This document shows positions 3,477 through 26,655 of a stretch of 32,000 bases of DNA, in pieces; position 1 is the first letter of the stretch; each line of letters starts with the position of its first letter. Origin of the DNA: an uncultured Clostridia bacterium (GTDB taxonomy: Bacteria > Bacillota > Clostridia > TANB77 > CAG-508); contig CANRPX010000004.1 in the NCBI GenBank assembly GCA_947632605.1, forward strand, positions 39,948 to 71,947. The letters are read 5' to 3'. Below the pieces are notes generated by a model. It was not told the origin of the DNA. It saw only the letters and a list, made by a program, of their open reading frames with translations, and searched no databases. The translations under genes were made by a program, and so were the position numbers.

Positions 3477-3487
3477 AAGGAGAAAAT

Positions 3488-4213
3488 ATGGAAGGTGTAG
3501 AAATAGAAAATAATATAGAAATTCAAAATACTTTAGGAGATAAATTAAAAGATTTACAAGAAAATTTTATTAAATCAGATATTGGAAAAGCTATAAATTC
3601 AGCAATAGATATAGGATTAAAAGCTGTTCTTCCAGACTTAATAGAAGATCAGATAATAGATGTGAAAAATGCAATATTAGAAAATGGATTTTCAGAAGGA
3701 ATAAAAGAAGTAATAAATTCTGCTATAAATACTGGAAAAAGCGCAATAGGAATTATAACTGGAAATTTTGAAAATGTATCACAAATACAATTAGCTATTA
3801 AAAATGGAGGAATACTTGATAAAGTTTCAAATTTATTAGATTATACAATAGACTTTGTGAAAGATAAAAATATAATTGATAAAAATATAAGCTCTCTTAT
3901 AAAAAATGGTAAAAATTCTATAATAAAATCAGTAGAAGAAAAAATAGAAGAAACTTTAACAAATCAAATAAAAGCTGTTGAAAAAGTGGAAAAATATTGT
4001 AGTAATTGGAATATAGGATATGCAGCTCAAGATATCACTGCAATGGAAAAAGCATATAAAAATATTAAAAATAATTTAGAAAAAATAATACCAATTGAAA
4101 ATATAATAAATAAAGCAAGAACTATTGAAAACTTACATAATTTAATAAAAAATAATGGAAATAATTTTAATATAAGTGAAGAAGAACAACTTTTAGCTGA
4201 AAAATTAAAATAA
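3488..4213 (+). CDS. hypothetical protein (helical, no signal peptide), last gene of the virB4 operon
   Basis: 241-aa ORF with AAAGGAG 6-7 nt upstream of the ATG, followed by a terminator at 4288-4319. I recognise no motif. Confidence 0.6.
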   Translation: MEGVEIENNIEIQNTLGDKLKDLQENFIKSDIGKAINSAIDIGLKAVLPDLIEDQIIDVKNAILENGFSEGIKEVINSAINTGKSAIGIITGNFENVSQIQLAIKNGGILDKVSNLLDYTIDFVKDKNIIDKNISSLIKNGKNSIIKSVEEKIEETLTNQIKAVEKVEKYCSNWNIGYAAQDITAMEKAYKNIKNNLEKIIPIENIINKARTIENLHNLIKNNGNNFNISEEEQLLAEKLK

Positions 4214-4287
4214 ATATTTTAATAAAAATCTAATTAAAAATTCTTATAAAATCTTATAAAAATTTAATTAAAAAAATTAAATTTATA

Positions 4288-4319
4288 GGGCAAAAATAAA
4301 GAAAATTTGCCCTTTTTTT
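4288..4319 (+). terminator. rho-independent terminator of the virB4 / TadZ-like / 241-aa operon
   Basis: GGGCAAA (4288-4294) pairs with TTTGCCC (4306-4312), followed by T7 at 4313-4319. Confidence 0.7.
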
Positions 4320-4320
4320 C

Positions 4321-4350
4321 TTGATTTTTTTGAGTGTTTTATTATATAAT
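4321..4350 (+). promoter_or_regulatory. putative sigma-A promoter of gyrA
   Basis: TTGATT (4321-4326), 18-nt spacer, TATAAT (4345-4350), about 36 nt upstream of the gyrA ATG. Confidence 0.5.
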
Positions 4351-4386
4351 GCAAGAAGAAACAAATATAAGAAAAGAGGGAAATAA

Positions 4387-6828: not shown

Positions 6829-6854
6829 AAATACAAAAGGAGAAAGTTACTATT

Positions 6855-7454
6855 TTGGATATATTAACATTGAATTCTAAGGAAAAATTAGGATGTATAA
6901 TGTGTGATAAATGTTGCATATATAGAGGGGATATAAGATTAACCCCTCTTAATGTATGTAAAATAAGTAAGTTTTTAAATTTAAGCATAAAGGAATTTTT
7001 AAAAGAGTATACAGATAGATTAGAAAATAATAAATTAGAATTAGTACTTAAAACAAAAGGAAATCTAAAACAATGTATTCTTTATGATGAAAAAAACAAA
7101 AAATGCGGAATTCATCCAGTAAAACCAATGCAATGTGTAATGTTTCCACTTGTTCCAGAAAATTTAAAAAGAGATTATTTTTATAATTCTGGTGAATGCA
7201 AAATGGAAGAATTTAAAGAAATAAAAGTCAAAAAATGGCTAAATGGAAATAATAATATTTATAGCAAAAATAAAAAAATTTGTATGGAATGGATAGAGTT
7301 TTTAGAATACATACAGCCTAAATTAGAAAACATATCAAAAGAAAAATTAGAAGAATGTTATGAAATACTATTTGAAAATTATGATTTTAAAAAAGTAAAT
7401 TTAAAAAATCAAATGAGAAATAATATAAAAACAGTAATAGATATTGTAAAATAA
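6855..7454 (+). CDS. YkgJ-family (UPF0153) cysteine-cluster zinc/iron-chelating protein
   Basis: 199 aa with CIMCDKCC (CxxCxxCC) near the N-terminus and a later KCGIHPVKPMQC cluster. TTG start 13 nt after AAGGAG; ATG at 6900 is an alternative. No terminator separates it from gyrA, so it is probably co-transcribed. Confidence 0.7.
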   Translation: MDILTLNSKEKLGCIMCDKCCIYRGDIRLTPLNVCKISKFLNLSIKEFLKEYTDRLENNKLELVLKTKGNLKQCILYDEKNKKCGIHPVKPMQCVMFPLVPENLKRDYFYNSGECKMEEFKEIKVKKWLNGNNNIYSKNKKICMEWIEFLEYIQPKLENISKEKLEECYEILFENYDFKKVNLKNQMRNNIKTVIDIVK

Positions 7455-7456
7455 AA

Positions 7457-7485
7457 AAACCTAATTATTTTTAATTAGGTTTTTT
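7457..7485. terminator. bidirectional rho-independent terminator between ykgJ-like (+) and dnaC-like (-)
   Basis: AAACCTAATTA / TAATTAGGTTT perfect stem with a TTTT loop, flanked by an A run upstream and a T run downstream. Confidence 0.75.
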
Positions 7486-7493
7486 GTTTTTTA

Positions 7494-8516
7494 TTATATT
7501 TCTTTTTTATTTTTCTTAAAACGTAAATCTTCACCAAAAAATCTAAGAAATCTATAAGTACCAGCAAGTCTAGAACCAATTCTTGTTGTGTAAGTTTTAA
7601 ACAATTCATCAAGAGTTAAATTAGTAGATATTATAGTTTTTGTAATTTTATGGTTTTGATTTAAAAGACGAGTATTTATTATTGTAAATAATTCTGTTAT
7701 TTTTGAATCTGTAATTTTTTCTGTTCCTAAATCATCTATTATAAGTAAATCAACATTTAAAATGTTTTCATATAAATCAAATTTTGAATTCTCTTTTCCA
7801 AATTTTGCTTCATTTATTTCATCAAACATAACAGGTGCTGTTTGATAAAGAACAGTTTTTCCAAGTTTTAATATTTCATTTGCAATGCAATTACTTAAAA
7901 AAGTTTTTCCTACACCTGTATTTCCAGTAAAAATTAAATTTTTTTCATCTGGATTATCAAAATTTTCAATAAATGCTTTTACTTTTTCTTTTATAATTTG
8001 CATATTTTCTCTTGGAGAAATGTCTGATTTATATTTTTCTTTATCTGGCTTATCTGAAAAAATTCTTAAATTAAAACTAGAAAAATTTTCTCTTTCAAGA
8101 TTTCCCATATTAGACTTGTTATATGCTATATCAAAAATTTTTTGTTTTAAACAAGAACACATTTGAACAGAATCATCTTTAGAAATATATCCAGTATCTT
8201 TACACAATTTGCAATCAAAATGTGGATTAAGATAGTTATTTTCTTTAGATAATTTTTTTATAAACTCATTTTTTTCTTTTATAAGTGCAGAATTTTGTTT
8301 TTTCAAATCAGATAATAACTTTTCTTGCTCTTTTTTATTAGATAAAAGAATTGCTTTAGAAATTTTTATAGAATTTTTTGAAAGTTCTTCTTCTATTTCT
8401 GAAAGTCTAGGGTTAATTTCCATTAATTCTTTTTTTCTATTTTCTGCTTCTAAAATAGCTTTATTTCTTTTATCTTCATATTCATGTAATAATTGTTTTA
8501 ACAAAGAATTATCCAT
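7494..8516 (-). CDS. DnaC/DnaI-type replicative helicase loader (IstB-like AAA+ ATPase)
   Basis: 340 aa. N-terminal Cys cluster CKLCKDTGYI...MCSC (zinc-binding module as in DnaI), Walker A FTGNTGVGKTFL, Walker B LLIIDDLGTE. Confidence 0.85.
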   Translation of the reverse strand: MDNSLLKQLLHEYEDKRNKAILEAENRKKELMEINPRLSEIEEELSKNSIKISKAILLSNKKEQEKLLSDLKKQNSALIKEKNEFIKKLSKENNYLNPHFDCKLCKDTGYISKDDSVQMCSCLKQKIFDIAYNKSNMGNLERENFSSFNLRIFSDKPDKEKYKSDISPRENMQIIKEKVKAFIENFDNPDEKNLIFTGNTGVGKTFLSNCIANEILKLGKTVLYQTAPVMFDEINEAKFGKENSKFDLYENILNVDLLIIDDLGTEKITDSKITELFTIINTRLLNQNHKITKTIISTNLTLDELFKTYTTRIGSRLAGTYRFLRFFGEDLRFKKNKKEI

Positions 8517-8620
8517 TTTTTATACCTTTTAAATATATTTAGGTTTTAAAAAATACCTATAAAAGTAAGATTGTAAAAAAATAATAATGTTTAATTTATT
8601 TGTATATTAAATTTTATAAA

Positions 8621-9574
8621 TTAATTATCATATAATGAATCTAAATTATCAAAAGTGCTCTGAGTGTATTCATAAGCTACTTTTTCAATTTGTTTATTTT
8701 TCTTTTCTTTATCTTTTAAAGAATTTAAGTATGTATTTATTTCATCTGCTGTGCTAAATTCTTTTTTATGCCAATCAGTTAAAAGAGTATCTATGTAATC
8801 AAATCTTACTTTATTATTAGAAGAAGCCTTTTTTAATGCAATTTCTATAATTTCCATATTATATCCATAATTTTCAGTCCATTTTACAATATCTTCTTCT
8901 TCATAAGTAGTAAGTTTTCGATATAATTTTAACTTTTTAGATATTTCATTATTTATTACATTTCTTTTTTCTTGTTTTTCAAAGTATGCCTCTAAATCAT
9001 TAAAAGTTTTTATATTATTTTTGCTCCAAGCATCTGCTGTTGCTTGAATGTAATTTCTGTGTAAAGCTCGTTTATCATAAGCATAACTAAATAAAGCAAG
9101 CATAACTTGTTCATCAAATCCATATTTGCTAAACCATAAATCAATATCATTATACCAAGAAGGAGACATTACTCCTTGGAAAAATTGTGCATTAATATTT
9201 TCAACTGCTTTTGCTCTATATTGATTTTGTGAATTTTTAATAGCATCTTCAGGTGAAGATGTTACTTTAGGACTATATAATTTTGAAAATTCTAATTCTT
9301 GAATATCAACTAGAGAATAGCCATCTGTTTTCTTTACTAAAATACCTTTATCTTCCCAATATTTAATTGCATCTTTAACAGTTGGGAAGTCTAGAGATAG
9401 CGTTTTTGAAATATCATTAACTTTGATTTCTTTATCATATTTTGACAAAAATAACATATAGAAATATACCTTAATATAATTACCATTAGCTTCTGGTAAA
9501 TATTCGGTAAAAAATATATCTGGTACATCTGTACTAGAAAATAATAGAGATTTTTCGTTAAGTGATAATTTCAT
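8621..9574 (-). CDS. DnaD-domain replication initiation / membrane attachment protein (B. subtilis DnaB/DnaD-like)
   Basis: 317 aa. Winged-helix-like N-terminus (YIKVYFYMLFL...ISKTLSLDFPTVKDAIKYWEDKGIL) and two DnaD-type repeats (SPSWYNDIDLWFSKYGFDEQVMLALFSYAY...YIQATADAWSKNNIKT and IVKWTENYGYNMEIIEIALKKA...YIDTLLTDWHKKEF). Lies directly upstream of the helicase-loader gene. Confidence 0.8.
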   Translation of the reverse strand: MKLSLNEKSLLFSSTDVPDIFFTEYLPEANGNYIKVYFYMLFLSKYDKEIKVNDISKTLSLDFPTVKDAIKYWEDKGILVKKTDGYSLVDIQELEFSKLYSPKVTSSPEDAIKNSQNQYRAKAVENINAQFFQGVMSPSWYNDIDLWFSKYGFDEQVMLALFSYAYDKRALHRNYIQATADAWSKNNIKTFNDLEAYFEKQEKRNVINNEISKKLKLYRKLTTYEEEDIVKWTENYGYNMEIIEIALKKASSNNKVRFDYIDTLLTDWHKKEFSTADEINTYLNSLKDKEKKNKQIEKVAYEYTQSTFDNLDSLYDN

Positions 9575-9633
9575 ATTAAAAGCGCCCCTTTATAATAAAC
9601 TTTAATATATTTTCTTTAGTACAATGTAAAAAG

Positions 9634-9662
9634 ATTATATCATTTAAAAAGCTTAAATACAA
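9634..9662 (-). promoter_or_regulatory. putative sigma-A promoter of the dnaD-like/dnaC-like operon
   Basis: On the minus strand: TTGTAT, 17 nt, TATAAT, with a TG (extended -10) two bases upstream. Confidence 0.5.
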
Positions 9663-9738
9663 TAAAAAATATAATAAAATTTATATGAAAAATCAAGAGG
9701 AATTTTATAAAAAATATACAAATAAAAAAATGTTTTAA

Positions 9739-10038
9739 TCATAAATTCATTTTATTATTTTTATCATAAAGATATATTTTTTGGTTCTTAATAAATTTAA
9801 AAACATACTTAAAAACAGAAATTATACTTTCTTTATTTATTCCTAAAATACTTATAAGCAAAATAGGAAAGAAAAGTGAAATAAAAACATAAATTTTTAA
9901 ATTAATATTTTTAAAAATTAAATTTACTAGAAAATACAAAATAACACCAAGTGTTACATCTAAAATAGCAGTAGAATATTCTATAAATCCTAATAATTTT
10001 GGCTTGAAATTATAATTTTTTGGAAAAATAAAATGCAT
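9739..10038 (-). CDS. small two-TM membrane protein, possible VirB3/PrgI/TcpE-like T4SS component
   Basis: 99 aa with two hydrophobic helices (AILDVTLGVILYFLVNLIF, IYVFISLFFPILLISILGI). It is the last gene of the minus-strand T4SS-like operon. Assignment rests on size, topology and position only. Confidence 0.4.
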   Translation of the reverse strand: MHFIFPKNYNFKPKLLGFIEYSTAILDVTLGVILYFLVNLIFKNINLKIYVFISLFFPILLISILGINKESIISVFKYVFKFIKNQKIYLYDKNNKMNL

Positions 10039-10062
10039 AAAGACTCCTTTTAAAATTAATTT

Positions 10063-10941
10063 TTAATTATTAGTAAAAGAGGAAATGTTTGCTTGAACTG
10101 TAGTAGAAATTCCACCAAAAATTTCTTTCATATAATTATTTGATCTACTTAAAGCAAAAATAATACCAATAAATAAAAGCTTAGAAATTGAAGAATTCTG
10201 AGTTATATTTATTGTAAATGAAAGTAATAAAATAAGTAATACTAATATTTGAACTAATAATAAAGATATAAAAGTTTTAATCCAAACTTTGAAAAACCAT
10301 TCAGAAGAATTAGTTATAAGACTTAAAAAAGCAAATGGGCTAATAAGTACAAAAATTTGAATCATTATATATCTAAGTGAATACGTAAATATTAAATTTA
10401 TAAGGCCAAAACTTGTAAATGATTTTATAATTCCATCAAAAGAGAAAATATTAAACTCGTTATTTTGTAAGTATATTGTTTTGTTAATATTTTCGATAAA
10501 ATTTGAAAAATTAATACTTGTATTAAAAAGATTCTCTCCAAGTTTTGAAATACTGTTGCTTATTAAATAAATAATATTTATTATTTGTTCACAAATCCAA
10601 AGGGAAGAATTCATAATAGCAATAAATATAATAGCTTTAAAAATAAATTGTTTTGGTGAATCTATTCTAGAATATGTTAAATGTGAAATTAAATAGTTTA
10701 TTGAATAATAAATTATGAATCCCAGAACTAAACTATTTGCAATTAATAATATTCCATTTGAACTTGAAGTTCCAATAATTTGCTCAAATTTAGAATTATT
10801 CAAAATACTTGGTTTTATAAAAATAATATCATCTAAAACACTGTAAATGGTATTATCAATAGATGAAAATAGTTTAGAAAATAATTGATTTAAAGATTCA
10901 AAAATTACATTTGTTAAATTAATTGTTGTTTGTTCTTCCAT
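10063..10941 (-). CDS. polytopic membrane protein, possible VirB6/TrbL-like T4SS channel component
   Basis: 292 aa with at least 6 hydrophobic segments, located between the pilin-like and VirB3-like genes. No soluble-domain motif recognised. Confidence 0.45.
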   Translation of the reverse strand: MEEQTTINLTNVIFESLNQLFSKLFSSIDNTIYSVLDDIIFIKPSILNNSKFEQIIGTSSSNGILLIANSLVLGFIIYYSINYLISHLTYSRIDSPKQFIFKAIIFIAIMNSSLWICEQIINIIYLISNSISKLGENLFNTSINFSNFIENINKTIYLQNNEFNIFSFDGIIKSFTSFGLINLIFTYSLRYIMIQIFVLISPFAFLSLITNSSEWFFKVWIKTFISLLLVQILVLLILLLSFTINITQNSSISKLLFIGIIFALSRSNNYMKEIFGGISTTVQANISSFTNN

Positions 10942-10963
10942 AATATTTCCATTTCTATAAAAT

Positions 10964-11293
10964 TTAAGTTAATAAAGTTTGGAATAGAGATAGAACTAAA
11001 TCTATACAAAGTATAAAACCATAAGAAAAAAGACTACCTCTAATAAGTTTATTTGCTGTACGAATTTTCTCTTCATCTCCAAAACTAAATTTTTTCATAA
11101 GTACTCCAGTTCCAACTGCAACAGCAGCTGCTGGTGTTGAAATTTTTACAATATAGCTTTCAATTTTTTCAAAGGCAGAATCAATAGTAGTAACTAATTT
11201 TGGATCTGCTGCAGATACACTTGTATTAAAAGTACAAATAAATAAAAAAGAAAGCATACATGTATAAATAATTGTTATTTTTTTATTTTTCAT
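10964..11293 (-). CDS. secreted small hydrophobic protein, possible VirB2/TrbC pilin-like
   Basis: 109 aa. Signal peptide MKNKKITIIYTCMLSFLFICTFNTSVSA with cleavage probably before ADPK. The mature ~80 aa has two hydrophobic helices (PAAAVAVGTGVLM, LFSYGFILCIDLVLSLF). Its start overlaps the coupling-protein stop by 11 nt. Confidence 0.45.
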   Translation of the reverse strand: MKNKKITIIYTCMLSFLFICTFNTSVSAADPKLVTTIDSAFEKIESYIVKISTPAAAVAVGTGVLMKKFSFGDEEKIRTANKLIRGSLFSYGFILCIDLVLSLFQTLLT

Positions 11294-12560
11294 ATTGTTT
11301 TAATCCTTTCATAAATTTTTCTTTTTCATAATATGGTATCATTTGTAATTTTTTAGGTTTTAAAATTCTTAAGCCATCAGAAATAAAACTTAAACAGTTA
11401 AATGTTTCCAAGCTTTGAGAAAAAAATTTTGTATCAAAAATATAATCATTTTGTGTATATTTATTATAACTTTCTGATAAATTCGAATCTCTAGACATAA
11501 GAGTATTTGTTATTAAATTAAACTTCGTTTCTTTCGCATTTTCAGAAATAGTAGTTGAAATCTTTTCTTTTTCTTCTTTTCCAATTTGTTTTTGTGCTTC
11601 TTCAATTGTAAAAATATCATCAGTTCTAAACCAAAGTTTATTAATTAAGCTTTGCAAAATAACTTTAGTAGAAGCTTCATCTTTTAAAGTATTTTTTATA
11701 GAAGAATAGCTTTGAGTTGCAACAATGTTTATGCATTTGGCTTCTCTACATCCAGAAAAAAAGTCACCATCAGTAGTTGTAACATATTCATGAAATTCAT
11801 CACTTATAAAAGCACTTTTTCTAATTTTAGAATTGTTTCCAAGTCTAGACATAACTTCTGTTTGAAAATCTAATTTTAGATATGTAGCAATAATTTTTGA
11901 AAGATTTTTATATTCTGCGATATTCATATTTAAAACAACTATTTTTCCTTTTTCTAAAACTTCTTTAAAACCATAAAAATTAATTTCTTCTTTTGATGGA
12001 CAAAAAGTTTGTAACACATTAAAATCAGAAATAAAAATGTTTGTAATTCTACTAATTTCCGATTTTAAAATTGATAAAGTTCTATTATCTAATGAAAAAA
12101 ATTCTTTTTCAAAAAAATCTATACAAGATAAAAGATTATAAATATCTGAATCAGAAAGCTTACCATTTTTGAATAACTCTTTTAAAATGCCGAGCTTTTC
12201 TGAATAATAATCAGAAAACATTACGAGTTTATGAATTTCAGAAAAAGAAACATATCCGTTATTATATAATCTACAAAATTTAATACATTCTGCTAAAATT
12301 TGTTCAACTTTATCAAGCCAATATGATTCAGAGTTATTTGGGCTAAATAATGTTAGAATTGTTTTTAATCTATTTGCAAGAACAATAGGTTTTAAATTTG
12401 GTTTATCTAGTGGGTTATATTTAAAATTTCCAGATAAATCTATTACTATAATATCTTCTAATCTATTACTTTCATTTGCATATTTAAGTACTTGTTTAAA
12501 ATAATTTCCTTTTACATCTAAAATTAGCATAGCTAATTTTTCATTTGAATTATTTGCCAT
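11283..12560 (-). CDS. type IV coupling protein (VirD4/TraG/TrwB-like), C-terminal fragment lacking Walker A
   Basis: 425 aa. LILDVKGNYF (DxKGE-like motif after the P-loop) and Walker B FISDEFHEY. It overlaps and is out of frame with 12550..13026, which carries the TM helices and Walker A. Confidence 0.7.
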   Translation of the reverse strand: MANNSNEKLAMLILDVKGNYFKQVLKYANESNRLEDIIVIDLSGNFKYNPLDKPNLKPIVLANRLKTILTLFSPNNSESYWLDKVEQILAECIKFCRLYNNGYVSFSEIHKLVMFSDYYSEKLGILKELFKNGKLSDSDIYNLLSCIDFFEKEFFSLDNRTLSILKSEISRITNIFISDFNVLQTFCPSKEEINFYGFKEVLEKGKIVVLNMNIAEYKNLSKIIATYLKLDFQTEVMSRLGNNSKIRKSAFISDEFHEYVTTTDGDFFSGCREAKCINIVATQSYSSIKNTLKDEASTKVILQSLINKLWFRTDDIFTIEEAQKQIGKEEKEKISTTISENAKETKFNLITNTLMSRDSNLSESYNKYTQNDYIFDTKFFSQSLETFNCLSFISDGLRILKPKKLQMIPYYEKEKFMKGLKQYEK

Positions 12561-13026
12561 GTAATCTATTAATTGACCGAGTTAATGGATACATTGCAGA
12601 AGAAGTTTTTCCAGTTCCAATAGTTCCAGTTATTAAAATGTTTTGATAAAGACCTTTTTCATCAATATAAATAGGCAAATTATCATTCAAACCAACAAAA
12701 AGTGAAAGATTACTATTTTGATTATTATGATTATTAAAGTTTTTAAAATTAATTTTATTTTTAGTATTTAGTGGAATTTTTGAGAATATGAAATTAAAAA
12801 TTTTATTATATAAAATGAAATATGAAAATAAAAAACTAAAAAGATAAATTTTCTTTAATAAAATCCATGTATTTGGATAAACTGAAACTATATCAAAAGG
12901 ATGCACTGCGTAAGGAAAAATCAAATGATTAGCATTAAAAATAGGGTTAAATATAAGATAAATAAAAAACAAAACAAAAGGAAAAGAAATTATAAAAAAT
13001 AATATTTTATAAAAAAATTTCTTCAA
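12550..13026 (-). CDS. type IV coupling protein, N-terminal fragment (TM helices plus Walker A)
   Basis: 158 aa. Two or three N-terminal TM helices, then ITGTIGTGKTSSAMYPLT (Walker A), then a stop 14 codons later. The frame of 11283..12560 is already open from 7 codons before its ATG (LGQLIDYMANNS...). This is consistent with one indel splitting a single ~580-aa T4CP gene. Confidence 0.7.
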   Translation of the reverse strand: MKKFFYKILFFIISFPFVLFFIYLIFNPIFNANHLIFPYAVHPFDIVSVYPNTWILLKKIYLFSFLFSYFILYNKIFNFIFSKIPLNTKNKINFKNFNNHNNQNSNLSLFVGLNDNLPIYIDEKGLYQNILITGTIGTGKTSSAMYPLTRSINRLHGK

Positions 13027-13661: not shown

Positions 13662-15974
13662 ATGGACATATTAGAAAATTTAAATGATAAACAATATGAG
13701 GCAGTTGTAAATACAGAAGGTCCATGCTTAGTTATAGCTGGTGCTGGAAGTGGAAAGACTAAAGTTTTAACACATAAAATTGCGTATTTGATAGGAGAAA
13801 AAAATGTAAAACCATGGGATATTTTAGCAATAACTTTTACAAATAAAGCTGCAAATGAAATGAAAACAAGAGTTGAAAATCTAGTTGGAGATATTGCAAA
13901 AGATATGTGGATAGGAACATTTCATTCTATTTGTGTTAGAATTTTAAGAAAACAAATAGATAGATTAGGTTTTGATTCTTCTTTTATTATATTTGATACA
14001 TCTGATCAAAAAACTTTAATAAAACAAATAATAAAATCACAAAATTTAGATGACAAACTTTATTCAGATAAATCTATACAGTATGAAATTAGTAATGCAA
14101 AAAATGATATGTTAGAGCCAGATAGTTATAGAGCAAAAGTAAAAGGAGATTTTAGAAAAGAAAAAATAGCTGAAATTTATCATATTTATCAAAAAAAATT
14201 AAAAGAAAATAATGCTATTGATTTTGATGATATAATCAATTTTACTATTAAAATTTTAATGGATAATCCAGATTTATTAGAATATTATTCAGGAAAGTTT
14301 AAATATGTTTTAGTAGATGAATATCAAGATACAAATAAAGCTCAATTCACTTTAGTATCTTTACTTGCTTCAAAATATGGAAATATTACTGTTGTTGGAG
14401 ATAATGACCAAGGAATTTATAGTTTTAGAGGAGCTGATATAACAAACATTTTGAATTTTGAAAAAGATTTTCCAGGAACACGAATAATTAAGTTAGAGCA
14501 AAATTATAGATGTACCCAAAACATTTTAAATATTGCAAATGAAGTAATTAAAAATAATGAAACAAAATATGAGAAAAAATTATGGACTGACAATGATTTA
14601 GGAAATAAACCTAAAATTTTTAGAGGAGATAATGAATATGATGAAGCAAATTACATTGTAAGACAAATTAATTCTCTAAAAATTGAAGAATATTATAAAT
14701 ATTCAGACTTTGCTATTCTTTATAGAATGAACTCACAATCTCGTAGTATAGAAGACATTTTAAGAAGAGAAGATATACCATACAAAATTGTTGGCGGTTT
14801 AAAGTTCTATGAAAGAAAAGAAATAAAAGATATTATTGCATATTTAAGGTTAATTCAAAATACATCAGATAATTTGAGTTTAACAAGAATTATAAATGAG
14901 CCTAAAAGAGGTATTGGAAAAACAAGTTTAGATAACATTGAGGATCTTTCAGCAAGTAATGGAATATCTATGTTTGAAATAATAAAAAGAGCAGATGAAT
15001 TTGGATTAAATAGAATTTTTGCAAACACTAGAGAATTTATAAGTGTAATAGAAGAATTAAAAAGTAAAAAAGATAATATAAAAATATCAGATTTAATAAA
15101 AGAAACTTTAAATAAAACGGGATATACAAGAGCATTGGAGCTTGAAAACACTGTTGAAGCAGAAACGAGAATACAAAACTTAGATGAATTTTTGACAGTA
15201 GCAATTGAATTTGAAGAAGAATCAGCTGATAATTCACTTAGTGAATTTTTAGAAGGAATAACTTTAAGTTCAGATTTAGATGGAATGGAAGATTCAGAAG
15301 ATTCTGTTACATTAATGACTTTACACAGTGCAAAAGGACTAGAATTTCCAGTTGTATTTTTAGTTGGAATGGAAGAAGGAATTTTTCCAGGATATAAATC
15401 TATTGGAGAGGAAAAAGAACTTGAAGAAGAAAGAAGACTTTGTTATGTTGGAATTACAAGAGCAAAAGAAAATTTGTTTTTAACTTGTAGTAGACAAAGA
15501 ACAATATTTGGTTCTACAAGCTGTAATCCAGTATCAAGATTTGTTAAAGAAATTCCTTCAAATATGTTAGAAGGATATGAAGATATAGAAGATAAAAGAC
15601 AAAATTTATATGATTCAGATAATGAATGGAGTTATGGGGAAAGAAGAAGACCTTCTTATTATTCAGACTATTCAAGAGAAGAATCTATTTCTACATATAA
15701 AGATATTGCAGCAGCATCTTCTAGAGGTACACAAACAACATATCAATTTAGAAGTGCAGAAAGCTTTTTAAATAGTTTAAATAAAAATAAATCAGAAGAT
15801 ATAGATTTATCAGTATATAAAGCAGGTGTAAGAGTATTACATAAAAAATTTGGAGAAGGCATTATTAATTCAGTAGAAAAAGAAGGAGAAGATTTAAAAG
15901 TAGATATAAATTTTGATAAAGTAGGGCACAAAAGGTTAATGGCTCGATTTGCAGGATTACAAATACTTGAATAA
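13662..15974 (+). CDS. pcrA: ATP-dependent DNA helicase PcrA (UvrD/Rep superfamily 1A)
   Basis: 770 aa. Helicase motifs AGAGSGKTKVLTHKIAYL, VDEYQDTN, QNYRCT, TLHSAKGLEFPVVFLVG and VGITRAKENL, plus a C-terminal Tudor-like tail GVRVLHKKFGEGII typical of PcrA. Confidence 0.95.
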   Translation: MDILENLNDKQYEAVVNTEGPCLVIAGAGSGKTKVLTHKIAYLIGEKNVKPWDILAITFTNKAANEMKTRVENLVGDIAKDMWIGTFHSICVRILRKQIDRLGFDSSFIIFDTSDQKTLIKQIIKSQNLDDKLYSDKSIQYEISNAKNDMLEPDSYRAKVKGDFRKEKIAEIYHIYQKKLKENNAIDFDDIINFTIKILMDNPDLLEYYSGKFKYVLVDEYQDTNKAQFTLVSLLASKYGNITVVGDNDQGIYSFRGADITNILNFEKDFPGTRIIKLEQNYRCTQNILNIANEVIKNNETKYEKKLWTDNDLGNKPKIFRGDNEYDEANYIVRQINSLKIEEYYKYSDFAILYRMNSQSRSIEDILRREDIPYKIVGGLKFYERKEIKDIIAYLRLIQNTSDNLSLTRIINEPKRGIGKTSLDNIEDLSASNGISMFEIIKRADEFGLNRIFANTREFISVIEELKSKKDNIKISDLIKETLNKTGYTRALELENTVEAETRIQNLDEFLTVAIEFEEESADNSLSEFLEGITLSSDLDGMEDSEDSVTLMTLHSAKGLEFPVVFLVGMEEGIFPGYKSIGEEKELEEERRLCYVGITRAKENLFLTCSRQRTIFGSTSCNPVSRFVKEIPSNMLEGYEDIEDKRQNLYDSDNEWSYGERRRPSYYSDYSREESISTYKDIAAASSRGTQTTYQFRSAESFLNSLNKNKSEDIDLSVYKAGVRVLHKKFGEGIINSVEKEGEDLKVDINFDKVGHKRLMARFAGLQILE

Positions 15975-17893: not shown

Positions 17894-18298
17894 TTATTGA
17901 TTATTCTTTTTAATATTTATTGGTTTTGGTATTATAAAGTTTATTTGATTTTCTTTTAATGCTACAACTGAAGTATCTCCTTTTCCAATAATTTGAGCTT
18001 CTATTGAATTAATAGGATTTTTTTCAAAAGGATTGAAAAAGAAATTTCGTACTGTGTCTAAAGTATTAAAAAGTGATGCTCTAATATTTCCCATATTCCA
18101 CATATAAGAAATACTTTTATATGTTTTTTGAGGTTTTAATTCTGCCGCAGGAAGCAATTTTTGAGCTTTGCCATTTTTTATCTTATATATGAGATTTGCC
18201 CAAAAACTTATTTTTTTTACTACTTCAATTTCGTAATTTTTTATAGCAGATTCATCTTGAATGTTATTATTTTGATTTTTTAAATTAATATCATTCAT
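17894..18298 (-). CDS. hypothetical protein
   Basis: ORF track gives 17894..18313 (139 aa). The third in-frame ATG (18298) is preceded by GGAGAG with 6-nt spacing, so MNDINLKNQ... is the likelier start. No motif recognised. Confidence 0.55.
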   Translation of the reverse strand: MNDINLKNQNNNIQDESAIKNYEIEVVKKISFWANLIYKIKNGKAQKLLPAAELKPQKTYKSISYMWNMGNIRASLFNTLDTVRNFFFNPFEKNPINSIEAQIIGKGDTSVVALKENQINFIIPKPINIKKNNQ

Positions 18299-18404
18299 AA
18301 CCATCTCTCCCATATTAAATTTAAGTTTATTTTATACTAAAATTTAAAAAAAACAATAAATTTAAACAAAACTTAATCTAAATGTTACAATCTAACAAAA
18401 AAAT

Positions 18405-20067: not shown

Positions 20068-22224
20068 GTGAATAAAATATTTAATAAAATTGCTGAAGAG
20101 CTTAATATTAGAGAATCTCAAGTTGAGGCAACAGTAAAACTAATTGATGAAGGAAATACAATTCCTTTTATAGCACGTTATAGAAAAGAAGTTACAGGAA
20201 ATTTAAGTGATGAAATATTAAGAGATTTAGGAGAAAGACTCACATATTTAAGAAATTTGGAAAACAGAAAAGAAGAAATAATAAGACTTATTGATGAGCA
20301 AGGAAAACTTACAGATGAATTAACAATTAAAATTGCAAGTACTATGGTTTTATCAGAACTTGAAGATATATATAGACCATTTAGACCTAAAAAAAGGACA
20401 AGAGCTACAATAGCTAAAGAGAAAGGATTAGAACCTTTAGCTAATATTATTTATTTACAACTAGAAAAAAGAAATTTATATGAAGTTGCAAAAGAGTATG
20501 TTAATGAAGAAAAAGGTGTAGCAAATGAAGAAGAAGCTTTACAAGGAGCATTAGATATAATTGCTGAAAATATTGCAGATGATGCTGATTATAGAAAAAA
20601 AATAAAATCATTATGTTTTAGAGAAGCAGTTATTACAAGTAAGGCAGTAGATGAAGATAAAAAATCTCCTTATGAAATGTATTATGATTTTAAAGAGGGA
20701 ATTTTAAAAATACCAAGTCATAGAATTTTGGCTATAAATAGAGGAGAAAAAGAAGAGTTTTTAAAAGTAAAAATTGAAAAACCTGATGAAAAAATTTTAG
20801 ATTATTTGAAAAAACAAATAATAAGAGATTATAAAAGTCAATTTAATGAACCACTTTCAAATGTTATAGAAGACTCATATAAAAGATTAATTGAACCATC
20901 AATTGAAAGAGAAATACGTGCAGATTTAACAGAACGTTCAGAAGAAAAAGCGATAAAAGTATTTGGTAAAAATGCAAAACAACTTTTATTACAACCACCA
21001 ATTAAAGATATGACAGTTATGGGATTTGACCCTGCATATAGAACTGGTTGTAAAATAGCAATTATAGATAAAACCGGAAAACTTTTAGATACTACAACAG
21101 TTTATCCAACAGAACCACAAAACGATACGGAAGGTGCTAAAAATACATTAAAAGCACTTATTTTGAAATATAATGTAAATATGATAGCAATAGGAAATGG
21201 AACAGCATCTCGTGAATCTGAAACTTTTGTATCTAATATGATAAAAGAAATTACAGGAGATATTTATTATGCAATAGTTAGTGAAGCTGGTGCATCTGTA
21301 TATTCAGCATCTAAACTTGCAACAGAAGAATATCCAGATATAAATGTTTCTTTAAGAGGAGCAATATCAATTGCTAGAAGACTTCAAGATCCACTTTCAG
21401 AGCTTGTAAAAATAGATCCAAAAGCAATAGGAGTTGGTCAATATCAACATGATGTAAATCAAAAAAAATTATCTGAAAGTTTAACAGGAGTTGTAGAAGA
21501 TGCTGTTAATTCAGTAGGTGTTGATGTAAACACTGCTACACCATCACTACTTTCTTATGTATCTGGAATAAATGGTTCAATTGCTAAAAACATTGTTAAA
21601 TATAGAGATGAAAATGGTGAAATAAAACAAAGAAAAGATTTACTTAAAGTTCCAAAATTAGGACCTACTGCATATAAACAGTGTGCTGGATTTATTAGGA
21701 TATTTAATGGAAAAAATCCATTAGAAGTAACAGCAGTTCATCCAGAAAGTTATGATGTTGCAGAAAAGTTATTAACAAAATTAGGATATTCTGTGGAAAA
21801 CTTAACTCAAAAAGATAAATTAGAAGATTTAAAAAATGATTTAAGTAAAGTAGATTGTGAAAAATTAGCAAGTGAATTAAATGTAGGAGCTCTTACTTTA
21901 AAAGATATTATAGAAGAGCTTTCAAAGCCAGGTAGAGATCCAAGAGAAGACTTACCAAAACCAATTTTGAGAAGTGATGTTTTGAAATTTGAAGATTTAC
22001 AAGAAGGAATGGAACTTACTGGAACGGTTAGAAATGTTATCGATTTTGGTGCTTTTATAGATATTGGTGTTAAACATGATGGATTAGTTCATATTTCTGA
22101 AATGGCAGATAAATATGTGAGAAATCCATCAGAAATAGTATCAGTAGGAGACATAGTAAAAGTAAAAGTTATAGGAATAGATAGAGAAAAACAAAAAGTA
22201 AGTTTAAGTATGAAAGTAAAATAA
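20068..22224 (+). CDS. tex: Tex-like transcription accessory protein (YqgF/RuvC-like, HhH and S1 RNA-binding domains)
   Basis: 718 aa. N-terminus IAEELNIRESQVEATVKLIDEGNTIPFIARYRKEVTG, YqgF-like core MGFDPAYRTGCKIAIIDKTGK, and C-terminal S1 domain GMELTGTVRNVIDFGAFIDIGVKHDGLVHISEM. GTG start with GAGG upstream. Confidence 0.95.
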   Translation: MNKIFNKIAEELNIRESQVEATVKLIDEGNTIPFIARYRKEVTGNLSDEILRDLGERLTYLRNLENRKEEIIRLIDEQGKLTDELTIKIASTMVLSELEDIYRPFRPKKRTRATIAKEKGLEPLANIIYLQLEKRNLYEVAKEYVNEEKGVANEEEALQGALDIIAENIADDADYRKKIKSLCFREAVITSKAVDEDKKSPYEMYYDFKEGILKIPSHRILAINRGEKEEFLKVKIEKPDEKILDYLKKQIIRDYKSQFNEPLSNVIEDSYKRLIEPSIEREIRADLTERSEEKAIKVFGKNAKQLLLQPPIKDMTVMGFDPAYRTGCKIAIIDKTGKLLDTTTVYPTEPQNDTEGAKNTLKALILKYNVNMIAIGNGTASRESETFVSNMIKEITGDIYYAIVSEAGASVYSASKLATEEYPDINVSLRGAISIARRLQDPLSELVKIDPKAIGVGQYQHDVNQKKLSESLTGVVEDAVNSVGVDVNTATPSLLSYVSGINGSIAKNIVKYRDENGEIKQRKDLLKVPKLGPTAYKQCAGFIRIFNGKNPLEVTAVHPESYDVAEKLLTKLGYSVENLTQKDKLEDLKNDLSKVDCEKLASELNVGALTLKDIIEELSKPGRDPREDLPKPILRSDVLKFEDLQEGMELTGTVRNVIDFGAFIDIGVKHDGLVHISEMADKYVRNPSEIVSVGDIVKVKVIGIDREKQKVSLSMKVK

Positions 22225-22231
22225 AATAAAA

Positions 22232-22270
22232 AAATAGCTAAATTTTATAAGATTTGGCTATTTTTTATTT
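22232..22270 (+). terminator. rho-independent terminator of tex
   Basis: 12-bp stem AAATAGCTAAAT / ATTTGGCTATTT (one G-U pair), 8-nt loop, T run. Confidence 0.65.
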
Positions 22271-22304
22271 TATTGCTGAAAATAAGCAAGGTATAAAGAA
22301 TTAA

Positions 22305-22333
22305 TTGACTTTCTGACTAAAAGATAGTATAAT
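22305..22333 (+). promoter_or_regulatory. near-consensus sigma-A promoter driving the GC-rich cassette
   Basis: TTGACT (22305-22310), exactly 17 nt, TATAAT (22328-22333). It lies in AT-rich DNA immediately before the compositional jump at about 22341. Confidence 0.6.
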
Positions 22334-22340
22334 AAACAAC

Positions 22341-23036
22341 ATGGCTAGGCTTTGCTCTAGCTAAATTCATCGAAGGGAGTGTTTTCATGAAACACGTCAC
22401 AGCAGCACAGGTTAACCAGAACGACAACATGGAGGTAAGCGCTATGTATGAAGAAGATCGGAGAGCCGAAGAAGTAGCCGAGAGCATCACTCATGAGGAA
22501 GATCAGTGCTGGGAGGACTACTTGAAAGAGAGCGAGCATGAAGAGGAGCATTCTTCCGAGCTCGCCGTCGAGTATGATATCCAGCAGGAAGTCGATTCCG
22601 AGTGTGCGGACCCCTATGCCGACAGAATGAGCGGCAAGAACAAGAGGGCTAATCGCAGGAAGCAGGCTGCCCACCACAAGGCTAAACTCCGCAAAAAGGC
22701 CATCGTGGCCGATAAAAGTTACGTGAAGCGGGCCGAGAAGGATACCCAGGAGGGTAAACGTACCAAAGCATTCCATCACGGAATGGAAAAGGACGACTAC
22801 CAGAGGGCGCACGAGATGTCTAAGGACTATATTCGTGCACGGAAGGCCATCTTCGAAGGAAAATCTCGTACGAGCCGTGCGAACAAGCTCTGGAAACTGG
22901 CAGGTGCCATGCATTTGTTGACGCCAGAATGTTCCAATTAAAAGAAAGCACTCGGTGACGAGGGTGTTAATCAAAAAATGCTGAATGAGTCACCAAACCC
23001 ACAACAAACGGGCACTGCAAGAGCAGTGCCCGTGTC
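22341..23036. other. compositionally anomalous GC-rich island (roughly 50-58% G+C against about 25% in the flanks)
   Basis: Hand counts: 22441-22500 = 29/60 G+C, 22561-22620 = 35/60, 22681-22740 = 32/60. The flanking line 23101-23160 = 15/60. Both edges are abrupt. Confidence 0.9.
22387..22941 (+). CDS. orphan protein of foreign composition: acidic N-terminal half, basic C-terminal half
   Basis: 184-aa ORF. AGGGAG lies 7 nt before the ATG, with a promoter upstream and a strong terminator downstream in the same orientation. Codons (GAG, AAG, CGC/CGG/AGG, GCC, CTC) are unlike host genes. Acidic stretch: EEDRRAEEVAESITHEEDQCWEDYLKESEHEEEHSSELAVEYDIQQEVDSE. Basic stretch: KNKRANRRKQAAHHKAKLRKKAIVADKSYVKRAEK...RARKAIFEGKSRTSRANK. 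I recognise no family. Confidence 0.65.
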   Translation: MKHVTAAQVNQNDNMEVSAMYEEDRRAEEVAESITHEEDQCWEDYLKESEHEEEHSSELAVEYDIQQEVDSECADPYADRMSGKNKRANRRKQAAHHKAKLRKKAIVADKSYVKRAEKDTQEGKRTKAFHHGMEKDDYQRAHEMSKDYIRARKAIFEGKSRTSRANKLWKLAGAMHLLTPECSN

Positions 23037-23043
23037 TATTTTT
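23009..23043 (+). terminator. strong rho-independent terminator of the GC-rich cassette
   Basis: 10-bp GC-rich stem CGGGCACTGC (23009-23018) / GCAGTGCCCG (23023-23032), AAGA loop, then TGTCTATTTTT. Confidence 0.8.
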
Positions 23044-23064
23044 ATAAAAATTTAAAATATTAAA

Positions 23065-23853
23065 TTATATAGTTATAAGTTTTCCTGGTTCAGTTCTACT
23101 TGCAACATTTAATTTAATAGTATTTATATCTGAATTGTTAGTCATAAGTTCTTCAGCTACTGTTTTATAAGCAAGTTCTGGAAAGTTATTTTCTTTACTT
23201 AAATGTCCTAACATAACTTGTTTTAAATCTTTTTTCATTAAGAAGGAAATAGTTTTTCCAGCTTCTTCATTTGATAAATGGCCATAAGGCCCTTTAATTC
23301 TTTGCTTTAAAAGAAAAGGATATCTAGAAGCATTTAACATTTCAGGTTCATAATTTGATTCTAGTAATATAAAAGAACTATGTTCTAATTCTTGAAGTAG
23401 ATTTGTATCAATATGACCTAAATCAGTAGCAATACTCAATTTTCTTTTTCCATTATGTATATTAAATCCGCAAGGATTTGCAGCATCATGTGGTATAGAA
23501 AAAGGATGAATATTTAAATCATTTAAAGAAAAATCTTCATTATTATTAAAGACATTTATATTTGAAGGAGAAATTTTTTGCTTTGTTTTCTCCATTGCAT
23601 TCCAAGTTTCTAAATTAGCATAAACAGGAATATTAAATTTTTCAGATACCATTCCTAAACTTTGTATATGATCTGAATGTTCATGAGTAATTAAAATAGC
23701 ATCAATTTCTTCTATTGATGAAGATATTGATGCTAAACCTTCACAAATTTTTTTGCAACTAGCTCCGCAGTCTATTAAAATTTTAGTGTTTTTTGAGCTT
23801 ACAAATAAACAATTACCAGAACTTCCACTATACAAGCTACAAAATTTTAACAT
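23065..23853 (-). CDS. MBL-fold metallo-hydrolase, YycJ/WalJ-like
   Basis: 262 aa. N-terminus LKFCSLYSGSSGNCLFVSS...ILIDCG and metal-binding HEHSDH motif. The overall layout resembles B. subtilis YycJ. Confidence 0.85.
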   Translation of the reverse strand: MLKFCSLYSGSSGNCLFVSSKNTKILIDCGASCKKICEGLASISSSIEEIDAILITHEHSDHIQSLGMVSEKFNIPVYANLETWNAMEKTKQKISPSNINVFNNNEDFSLNDLNIHPFSIPHDAANPCGFNIHNGKRKLSIATDLGHIDTNLLQELEHSSFILLESNYEPEMLNASRYPFLLKQRIKGPYGHLSNEEAGKTISFLMKKDLKQVMLGHLSKENNFPELAYKTVAEELMTNNSDINTIKLNVASRTEPGKLITI

Positions 23854-26184: not shown

Positions 26185-26655
26185 ATGGATAAGCAAAAGA
26201 TTTGTAGCTTTTACATAAGTGAATTTCACTTATTAACAATTTTATTGCCATATATAAATGAAAAAATAATAGAGAAAAGAAAAATTGCAGTAATTTTACA
26301 AAAGGATATTTCTGAAAATGTTGAAAGTTATTTGAAAAATGTAAGAAATTTAAATTTAAACAATGAAAAAATTATAAATATTGGCTGGAAAAAAAGTAAT
26401 GAGAAAAACATTGAAAATTTGGAAGGAAAAGATGTTGTAGTGATAGGAAATAAAGAATATATTGAAACAGTTAATGAACAAATAGAAAACATAGATGTAA
26501 AAGAAATTTTAAATTGTTATAAAGTAAATGAGATTGAAAGAATAGATAAAATATTATCAAATCATCAAAAAGTTTTAAATACTGAAGGCACAAGAGAATC
26601 AAAAAATTTTTCACAAAATGCACAAAAAAGAAAAACAATAAAAACACAAATTTAA
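26185..26655 (+). CDS. hypothetical protein
   Basis: 156-aa ORF with TGGAGG 7-8 nt upstream of the ATG. No motif recognised. Basic C-terminal tail QNAQKRKTIKTQI. Confidence 0.55.
   Translation: MDKQKICSFYISEFHLLTILLPYINEKIIEKRKIAVILQKDISENVESYLKNVRNLNLNNEKIINIGWKKSNEKNIENLEGKDVVVIGNKEYIETVNEQIENIDVKEILNCYKVNEIERIDKILSNHQKVLNTEGTRESKNFSQNAQKRKTIKTQI

Follow-up and report, generated by a model that had tools for sequence, protein, structure and literature searches.

The window analysed here is a stretch of 32,000 nucleotides from an uncultured Clostridia bacterium (contig CANRPX010000004.1, positions 39,948 to 71,947 of the forward strand), and its single GC-rich segment carries a gene, designated X below, which lies between tex and a yycJ-like gene of the metallo-beta-lactamase fold (MBL). 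This compositional outlier is a real gene and not a recent import. X is a member of a clade-restricted family that in this clade is always situated between tex and the yycJ-like gene. The high G+C of the family is a by-product, and its signature is the avoidance of A at the third codon position: five of its genes contain a single codon ending in A (NNA) in 1134 codons. The window copy is a shortened, derived member in which this ban is relaxed and which is drifting to host composition. Selection against NNA codons is the likely cause of the pattern. An explanation that joins vertical inheritance of X, the NNA ban, its relaxation in the window and an escape of the transcript from some factor dependent on third-position adenosine is, taken as a whole, about evenly balanced between right and wrong in our judgement.

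Third codon positions in the X family

Related genomes were fetched via the MBL gene (L-numbers below are labels of fetched loci or assemblies, P-numbers those of proteins), about 10 kb was read around each related locus, and the family emerged from reading the same slot there. The order tex / X / MBL (converging) / murA / spoIIR is found in every readable context of X, in at least 15 related uncultured gut Clostridia known as metagenome-assembled genomes (MAGs) from rabbit, mouse, sheep and human.

In the genes neighbouring X, 42–55% of codons end in A. In the 11 distinct long-form X genes (217–264 amino acids, aa) this share is 0–3% per gene, and it is 3% in the 141-aa form of L006. The only NNA codon of the five genes L008, L086, L089, L091 and L097 belongs to L091, the other four having none, and three further lineages contain 1–2 such codons each. 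When the five genes are pooled, the ratio of A to G at the end of Lys, Glu and Gln codons is 0:289 against a T:C ratio of 60:191 at pyrimidine-ending codons (Fisher p = 1.5e-22), and the four-fold sites contain A, T, C and G in the numbers 1, 73, 236 and 112. Pooling of six genes gives AAA 0 and AAG 142, CAA 0 and CAG 49, GAA 8 and GAG 130, with AGA, CGA, ATA, TTA, CTA, GCA, CCA, ACA and TCA at zero each, while T-ending codons are in ordinary use (GCT 33, GAT 22, ATT 21, TAT 14). In the family the NNA class is thus absent beyond neutral expectation (p ~1e-21 or lower), and this absence is kept across speciation.

The same can be followed gene by gene through the shares of codons ending in A (A3) and in T (T3). 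A3 rounds to 0.00 in all five ban-keeping genes with T3 at 0.09–0.26, the individual values of T3, Lys/Glu/Gln A:G and T:C being 0.09, 0:58 and 9:39 in L008; 0.12, 0:61 and 10:40 in L086; 0.12, 0:60 and 8:38 in L089; 0.10, 0:50 and 6:47 in L091; and 0.26, 0:60 and 27:27 in L097. For L006 they are 0.04, 4:30 and 0:40 at A3 0.03. The window copy does not show the absence of NNA codons (A3 0.17, T3 0.20, A:G 19:33, T:C 19:23), and L012 (0.41, 0.28, 50:25, 32:6) comes near to the host gene tex of the window (0.55, 0.38, 152:13, 126:9). Among the 2612 open reading frames (ORFs) of the approximately 1 Mb of fetched loci, X is the sole one with A3 ≤0.05 in the share belonging to the AT-rich clade; other NNA-poor ORFs proved to be spurious frames or to come from GC-rich genomes.

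The first and second codon positions contain plenty of adenosine (in the window copy 0.30 and 0.49, with G at 0.39 in position 1), which ties the rule to the reading frame and not to base composition, RNA stability or properties of the DNA. Tolerated and rising T-ending codons also argue for selection at the codon level and not on base composition. The codons ATA and CGA are read by lysidine- and inosine-bearing tRNAs and not by U34 tRNAs, and the inosine tRNA for CGA also reads CGC and CGT. The ban in X extends to all codon boxes, ATA and CGA included, CGC and CGT are heavily used, and the avoided feature therefore appears to be the adenosine of the mRNA codon and not one class of tRNA. The literature searched contained no account of the X family or of NNA-free genes, and no report of a natural gene freed of one entire third-position class for escape from a toxin is known to us.

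Maintenance of the pattern was evaluated against the flanking genes. Between sister species synonymous G/C is kept at 0.24–0.35 in tex, MBL and murA versus 0.89–0.94 in X, and G at Lys, Glu and Gln codons at 0–0.36 in the host genes versus 1.00 in X, with zero differences at 31–50 sites in each of seven pairs. A two-state neutral model with more than 400 host sites per class from the three flanking genes gives a host retention factor of 0.34–0.53 per lineage even for the closest trio, and a neutral ceiling of about 0.5–0.57 G/C at the synonymous sites of X versus 0.84–0.93 observed. An early estimate of near-neutral decay of third-position G+C (GC3), made with MBL only, was superseded after addition of tex and murA; parsimony polarisation of host synonymous changes is biased by base composition and was set aside. 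Third-position changes polarised within the L008 trio comprise 19 from GC to AT and 2 from AT to GC, so that GC3 is not at equilibrium and the C-ending codons are slowly decaying to T.

The L008 group as a whole and L006 keep the ban, whereas the window, L094 and L007/L099/L012 do not; this distribution over the three sub-clades points to an ancestral ban with several losses. In the relaxed copies, whose promoter and orientation are unchanged, A3 and T3 have both increased (the window has A/(A+G) of 0.35 and T/(T+C) of 0.39), and L094, L007 and L012 are relaxed further, with A3 0.30–0.41 and T3 0.25–0.28. Since these copies gained A3, the locus is not mutationally unable to make it.

It is conceivable that X is an ancient import from a high-GC donor which has undergone slow and uneven amelioration with no selection at the codon level. 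The profile of L006 (A3 0.03, T3 0.04, C3 0.55, G3 0.38) is like that of a high-GC organism, the changes in the L008 trio run on balance from GC to AT, and the GC3 values of the X genes grade from 0.92 down to 0.31 without a break between species, the flanking genes having 0.07–0.15. The near-consensus promoter suggests that transcription may be high, and under heavy transcription a faster deamination of cytosine on the non-transcribed strand could leave T3 above A3, the GC-rich duplex being protective. However, no G-to-A change is found at the 31–50 Lys/Glu/Gln sites of each pair against 5–10 C/T differences, and by our own estimate a strand asymmetry of more than 50-fold would be needed for this. 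The relaxed copies, with locus, promoter and orientation unchanged, gained A3 together with T3, and near-equally in the window; between the same species pairs 65–76% of the host synonymous G/C states are lost; the neutral ceiling is exceeded; and neither 1.84 billion representative proteins nor a collection of 5.8 billion proteins yielded a donor family for X. We consider such an import, taken as the whole explanation, unlikely.

A similarly low probability is assigned to codon-tuned translation, a mirror image of bldA/TTA control or of modification-tunable transcripts, in which X would use codons poorly read by its AT-rich host, and its synthesis would hang on a minor tRNA or on U34 modification and report the metabolic state. 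In favour of this, Lys, Glu and Gln codons make up 27% of the codons of the long form and all of them end in G, the strong predicted promoter and ribosome-binding site would leave elongation limiting, and codon-biased stress regulons linked to tRNA modification are an established idea. But T-ending codons, which are common in the host and presumably well read, are tolerated and rising (T:C 27:27 in L097) with A-ending codons at zero, and the rule is thus "no A" and not "rare codons". The ban on ATA and CGA, which U34 tRNAs do not read, and the heavy use of the CGC and CGT partners of CGA do not agree with it either. The A/T asymmetry is a poor fit to both ancient import and codon tuning, and we retain selection against NNA codons as the likely cause.

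Coding status and descent

The slot is occupied in L006, L007, L008, L012, L086, L089, L091, L094, L097, L099, L104 and others, and the tex–MBL gap of L006, L007, L008 and L012 measures 854–1230 bp with an ORF on the tex strand, as in the window. Convergence of tex and MBL is retained by all of the closest species representatives. In three relatives the slot is empty, being filled with AT-rich spacer of 142 bp (L009), 426 bp (L010) and 36 bp (L011), and more distant relatives (MBL identity ≤69%) have neither the adjacency to tex nor a G+C island. All protein homologues with an inspected genomic context come from the tex/MBL slot.

Two of the gaps have peculiarities of their own. In L006 (6790–8019; rabbit MAG CANQGE010000008.1, X on the minus strand) the gap contains two tandem cassettes, each equipped with separate copies of the promoter, the 5' untranslated region (UTR), the 3' UTR and the terminator. 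The ORF of the second cassette has 76 aa, A3 0.08 and a double stop followed by an in-frame stretch resembling the C-terminal block of the family, and this cassette looks like a duplicated, decaying paralogue. The 426-bp gap of L010 (6790–7218) lacks X and has a TTGACA-type promoter and AGGAGG ahead of a small ORF, which opens with a non-standard start codon and would encode a hydrophobic peptide of some 36 residues. This could be either another small gene or what is left of the cassette.

The homologues are 17–35% identical to the window protein (23–31% for the ORFs of L006, L007, L008 and L012) and share three blocks: an acidic N-terminus with Cys-Trp, a basic core KRAxRRKxxAxxKxK...ADK...KR...D, and a C-terminal SQxxRAxxLxKKA. 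Profile searches gave a family of about 20 proteins, none of them named and none with a Pfam domain; single-sequence search of the 5.8 billion proteins and an exhaustive phmmer search of the 1.84 billion representatives returned the window protein and one weak relative only. Most members are of the long form (217–264 aa) and have an extra, well-conserved C-terminal domain (HLEWLxEYGKRN...DRYxRExEEKVKREL...NIF). Short forms are the 141-aa protein of L006, the window protein, which stops just past the third block, and the 165-aa protein of L094, which ends likewise.

Signals for expression are conserved together with the protein. Of the 12 X loci printed, 11 have TTGAC(T/A)-17-TATAAT in the corresponding place and L007 has TTGATT; a strong Shine-Dalgarno sequence is present in all 12, and a small 5' hairpin in most. 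The hairpin occupies the same place in L094, and the long-form loci have one of different sequence. The string cgaagggagtgttttcATG, covering the Shine-Dalgarno sequence and the start context, is identical in the window and L094. It bears on the choice of the start codon: public gene calls mostly give a product of 165 aa from the second ATG at 22444 (P0001), and a Logan call is 184 aa (P0002). The start at 22387 is preferable, because this string is shared with L094 and the 19 upstream residues align with the N-terminal helix of the family; Tyr21 of the window protein falls on the conserved Tyr12 column, which is invariant in long forms. Judging by these alignments, the public gene callers have probably truncated X.

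Within the L008/L086/L089/L091 group the synonymous divergence (dS) of X is 0.30–0.72 and that of MBL 0.26–0.67. This similarity within the subclade argues for vertical descent. The nonsynonymous divergence (dN) in the same four loci is 0.155–0.36 for X versus 0.03–0.08 for MBL, about 5-fold faster, and with MBL identity of 96%, 94% and 90% the identity of X is 81%, 66–74% and 27–44%, respectively. Sense dN/dS is 0.24–0.62 versus 0.7–1.3 for the codon-aligned antisense frame, and is the lower of the two in every pair; in the low-GC3 pair L007/L099 it is 0.12, so the protein there is still under purifying selection. These ratios (0.12–0.62) come from other pairs of the family, the nearest relatives of the window copy being saturated. 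The reading frame is kept in all species with X despite the low identity. From these comparisons of sequence X is a real chromosomal protein-coding family of vertical descent.

In the window the ORF has G+C of 0.57, 0.36 and 0.63 at codon positions 1, 2 and 3, i.e. a three-base periodicity, and a 184-codon open frame would arise by chance at such composition with P ~8e-5 per frame. Among 234 triplets of the coding frame there is 1 stop, against 14 and 10 stops in the other two plus-strand frames. This periodicity is of importance for another possibility, that the segment specifies a structured, GC-rich RNA without coding function, or an mRNA under selection for overall secondary structure, the ORF being incidental. 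The compositional edges do coincide with the predicted transcript, and folding of the whole transcript gives z of -3.3 in the window and -3.9 in L086. The coding region, however, folds no better than synonymous-codon shuffles (z -1.8 to +1.2), so that the whole-transcript values probably come from hairpins of the UTRs and the terminator. No Rfam family matched the segment, whether the gathering score or an E of up to 10 was applied (the best sub-threshold scores were 12–25 bits, far under the cut-offs), and no tRNA or transfer-messenger RNA genes were found. Together with the lower sense dN/dS in every pair, the frame kept at low identity, and a phase-specific ban on A that cannot arise from selection on base composition, this makes the RNA explanation very improbable. 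The OLE, ROOL, GOLLD and raiA RNAs are similar to X in being GC-rich, intergenic-looking blocks with their own promoter and terminator in an AT-rich genome; X differs from them in the lack of an Rfam match, in codon periodicity, in purifying selection and in having no excess structure in the coding region.

Even less probable is an overlapping antisense gene that would force the pattern, since a sense strand with no A3 yields no antisense stop. The antisense frame is indeed open across the whole gene in all high- and intermediate-GC3 copies, and in the window it forms an ORF of 205 codons (22357–22974, minus strand). Such openness needs avoidance of TTA, CTA and TCA only and not of all sixteen NNA codons, the antisense dN/dS is 0.7–1.3, the frame is broken by 3–7 stops in low-GC3 members with an intact sense ORF, and the promoter, the ribosome-binding site and the T tract are all on the sense strand. 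Position 1 of the antisense codons is position 3 of the sense codons, and the sense strand contains no TTA, CTA or TCA; we judge the 205-codon ORF to be a by-product of this.

The initial annotation, made from the window sequence alone, had considered a chimeric or contaminated assembly, a very recent horizontal acquisition and an anti-phage or anti-defence gene as candidate readings of the segment. As for a chimera, the compositional contrast alone would speak for it, and against it both junctions recur: the same segment lies between the same neighbours in 5 further assemblies from separate samples at 99.2–99.8% identity, with strain-level single-nucleotide polymorphisms (SNPs) on either side of it. 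The junction-spanning records are ENA ERZ27249265 and ERZ27249483 and the Logan assemblies of runs DRR849014, ERR10663734 and ERR10663737, and records with exactly the window protein exist for NCBI, ENA and Logan assemblies. The probability of an assembly error can be taken as negligible.

A very recent acquisition by the window species would agree with the sharp edges and with the first protein search, which gave no close homologue besides the window protein. It is contradicted by syntenic homologues in the same slot in at least 15 related species, by a dS of X about equal to that of its neighbour, and by the promoter, the Shine-Dalgarno-plus-ATG context and the 3'-UTR hairpin common to the sister species L094. 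There is no integrase or transposase at the slot, the immediate neighbours being tex and the MBL gene, and no terminal inverted repeats or target-site duplication around the segment, where the repeat search gave only AT-rich low-complexity matches; the lack of mobility signals had been seen correctly from the start. Searches with blastn against plasmids and phages and a scan of viral contigs gave no relatives of X. We therefore hold recent acquisition to be very improbable, and with PADLOC and PHROGs also yielding nothing the anti-phage or anti-defence role is left without support. Vertebrate origin was rejected at a CpG observed/expected ratio of about 1. So were a diversity-generating retroelement, hypermutation and biased gene conversion, as no reverse transcriptase or template repeat was present in the regions read and there was no AT-to-GC excess.

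X resembles the ameliorating islets of Lawrence and Ochman in being a sharp-edged outlier, several lineages of which, including that of the window, drift to host composition. It differs from them in being syntenic clade-wide from before the split of those species, with no mobility genes and no donor, and in having one class of synonymous sites that shows no amelioration. For annotation this means that a compositional island is not necessarily a recent import.

Possible causes of the ban and properties of the protein

A ban on adenosine that is specific for the third position of the frame would direct attention to the decoding centre. The mRNA of X would have to stay intact and translatable while some factor acts on A-site codons ending in adenosine, and candidate agents are the ribosome-dependent mRNA endonucleases of the RelE superfamily, e.g. 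a HigB-like toxin. An agent reading third-position adenosine would strike about half of the codons of such a genome and stop nearly all translation, and an NNA-free mRNA would be spared. In a variant of this mechanism X itself would block the decoding of NNA codons and would have to escape its own action.

A selective pocket for the third A-site position is found in RelE, HigB and YoeB alike; HigB favours adenosine there, YoeB pockets adenosine at this position, and YafQ cleaves at the AAA lysine codon (PMC5027501, PMC4931118). The purpose of the codon specificity of ribosome-dependent toxins and its relation to selective translation are an open question (PMC5027501, PMC4931118). An NNA-free transcript has the look expected of immunity to an enzyme with a preference for third-position A. 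The differences are that neither sequence nor predicted fold marks X as such a toxin, that no toxin is found near X, and that the link is one we infer. Escape of the transcript from an attack dependent on third-position adenosine is accordingly our preferred, though tentative, proposal for the cause of the ban, and we give it a fairly low probability. Somewhat more doubtful still is the most far-reaching form, by which X would be the first natural gene purged of the whole NNA class for survival of its mRNA, or else a self-immune blocker of NNA decoding, which would amount to a shut-off switch where half of a genome's codons end in A; in both cases the window lineage would have recently abandoned the arrangement.

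Two other systems have comparable features. In the case of MazF and "ACA-less" mRNAs, an mRNA without the recognition element survives a global cut of RNA; the sites of MazF are short motifs independent of phase, whereas the avoidance in X is defined by the reading frame. In bldA/TTA control of Streptomyces and in modification-tunable transcripts synonymous choice sets a gene apart with a presumed regulatory meaning, but one rare codon or one class of tRNA modification is concerned there, and X bans all sixteen A-ending codons across tRNA types and admits the common T-ending ones.

Several points weigh against the explanation as a whole. Neither the window nor the approximately 10 kb read per related locus showed a toxin gene or another agent with specificity for A-ending codons. 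C-ending codons are also protected, being kept at 0.79–0.92 in X versus 0.26–0.46 in host genes, and this implies that a second force or a lower local mutation rate acts as well. Purifying selection still acts on members with a relaxed ban, so that the protein as such does not require the ban. All but one of the high- and intermediate-GC3 genes terminate in TAA, itself A-ending. The calibration of the neutral rate is based on three flanking genes and simple two-state models, and as for where the family ultimately came from, the codon profile of L006 agrees with an ancient import out of a high-GC donor.

If the explanation is right, the synonymous sites of X are under a near-absolute, phase-specific constraint unrelated to ordinary codon optimisation, which over the history of the clade has withstood an AT mutation pressure ranking among the strongest known. 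X would be a concrete candidate transcript for the question of selective translation under toxins. Species keeping the ban, species losing it (that of the window included) and species without the gene form a natural comparison set.

The protein gives few indications of its function. The initial annotation had recognised no family motif in it, and this was confirmed by profile and fold searches: sequence profile searches with Pfam, NCBIfam, PADLOC, PHROGs and PDB gave nothing significant, Foldseek found no neighbour with E below 0.1 in PDB and BFVD, and there was neither a profile match to RelE/HigB-type toxins or known defence and toxin families nor a RelE-like fold. The AlphaFold2 model of the long form, computed from the alignment, has a mean predicted local distance difference test score (pLDDT) of 71.6 and a core of about 90 composed of a basic helix, a beta-hairpin and a helix, and the basic core of the window protein corresponds to its high-confidence helix (pLDDT ~90). 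The single-sequence model is poor (predicted template modelling score 0.24). X is probably a helical protein binding nucleic acid or the ribosome. Its basic core, e.g. KNRAKRAERRKATAMHKRK in the long forms, resembles the arginine-rich RNA-binding helices of the lambda N type. Two conserved Cys and a His (Cys41, Cys73 and His95/96 of the window protein) could form a metal site.

The C-terminus is -VA or -AA in 10 of the 11 long forms read (-LAA in P0008, P0009 and P0011), a count to which the 217-aa protein of L104 does not belong. These -AA, -VA and -LAA ends (P0004–P0016) resemble the ssrA tag that ClpXP recognises, and are absent from the window copy; the long form is probably short-lived. 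Both the lambda N and the ssrA resemblances are short and of low complexity.

The window copy and its surroundings

The segment 22341–23043 has 50% G+C on a background of 25%. The 700-bp windows of the rest of the 32 kb have a mean G+C of 0.246 with a standard deviation of 0.040 and a maximum of 0.329, against a peak of 0.497 at 22351 (z = 6.3), and the 40-bp windows place the step up at ~22340 and the step down at ~23035. The segment is also the top trinucleotide outlier of the window (L1 distance 0.74, median 0.31). Codon use is as distinct: GAG:GAA is 14:10 in the X ORF versus 63:750 in the 19 other genes, AAG:AAA 11:9 versus 75:841, GCC:GCA 10:5 versus 6:234, and GC3 is 0.63 versus 0.05–0.14. 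The description in the initial annotation of a single departing segment with abrupt edges near 22341 and 23036, atypical codon choice and a self-contained expression unit thus proved accurate, as did that of an acidic/basic bipartite protein; its observation of a single outlier extends to the related loci, where in about 1 Mb the homologous gene is the sole outlier of each AT-rich locus.

The upstream anchor of the slot is tex (20068–22224, plus strand), a 718-aa ORF with GC3 0.07, the identical product of which is on record with the Pfam domains Tex_N, YqgF, HHH and S1. It is followed at 22220–22274 by an AT-rich inverted repeat of host-like composition (repeats I1, I2 and I5) which from its position may serve as the tex terminator. 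The unit of X, all on the plus strand, begins with the sigma-70-type promoter TTGACT-17-TATAAT at 22305–22333, where 11 of 12 consensus positions match. The transcript would start near 22340, and a hairpin with the stem GCTAG/CTAGC (22344–22361) lies near this predicted 5' end, possibly stabilising it. The Shine-Dalgarno sequence GAAGGGAG (22372–22379) precedes by 7 nt the ATG at 22387, with which the short-form X gene opens (22387–22941, 184 codons, TAA stop included in the interval); its homology to the slot genes elsewhere is seen in alignments A1–A3. The alternative ATG of the public gene callers occupies 22444–22446.

Residues 20–76 of the product (22444–22614) form an acidic region of net charge -20, with the conserved CW motif (Cys41-Trp42) and Cys73 in alignment columns, and residues 82–175 have a net charge of +19, with pairs of His starting at residues 96 and 130. 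The latter include the basic core, residues 84–119 (22636–22743; KNKRANRRKQAAHHKAKLRKKAIVADKSYVKRAEKD), which is the best-conserved block of the family and contains the invariant Arg-Arg, Arg and Asp columns. The C-terminal conserved block comprises residues 159–176 (22861–22914; KSRTSRANKLWKLAGAMH); the long-form domain that comes after this block in other species and the -AA end are both missing from the window copy. Downstream of the ORF a 3'-UTR hairpin GGTGAC...GTCACC is predicted at 22954–22994, its closing stem and flanks being common to L094. The intrinsic terminator at 23008–23043 has an 11-bp stem with 8 G-C pairs (23008–23033) followed by GTCTATTTTT, and may also be used by the converging MBL operon. 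The MBL gene itself (23065–23853, minus strand) is a 262-aa ORF with Lactamase_B Pfam families on record and GC3 0.10.

In host genes the retention since the split from L006 is 0.34–0.38, and under the two-state model A3 and GC3 of the window copy would correspond roughly to decay at the host rate after the constraint was lost part-way along the lineage. The window copy is probably still a gene: its ORF is intact, the protein is invariant in all six assemblies, and low-GC3 relatives are under purifying selection. One silent SNP (22908) occurs in the ORF of 3 of the 5 other assemblies. The L003 assembly has G>C at 22379, the last G of the Shine-Dalgarno sequence. In the 3' UTR (22942–23064) the window differs from all 5 other assemblies by an A-run indel near 22973–22978, by TG/CA at 22979–80 and by C/T at 23005; the first of these window-private changes fall in the loop of the 3'-UTR hairpin, next to a nearly invariant ORF.

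Some features elsewhere in the window may be mentioned. Rfam gives a match at gathering score at 15397–15496 to RF03531 (n00280, a Clostridioides difficile small RNA "included into helicase gene"); it lies inside a UvrD/PcrA-type helicase ORF (13662–15974) and probably reflects conservation of the coding sequence. The region 580–13026 looks like part of a conjugative or integrated element. TraG-like P-loop proteins are encoded at 580–2355 and 11283–12560, a ParA/MinD-like ATPase at 2352–3476, an IstB/DnaA-like ATPase at 7494–8516 and a DnaB_2 protein at 8621–9574, and the stretch 2400–3600 is extremely AT-rich (G+C 0.14). The ORFs 12550–13026, 17894–18313 and 26185–26655 (139–158 aa) have no match in Pfam, and the last of them is conserved beside spoIIR in all related loci.

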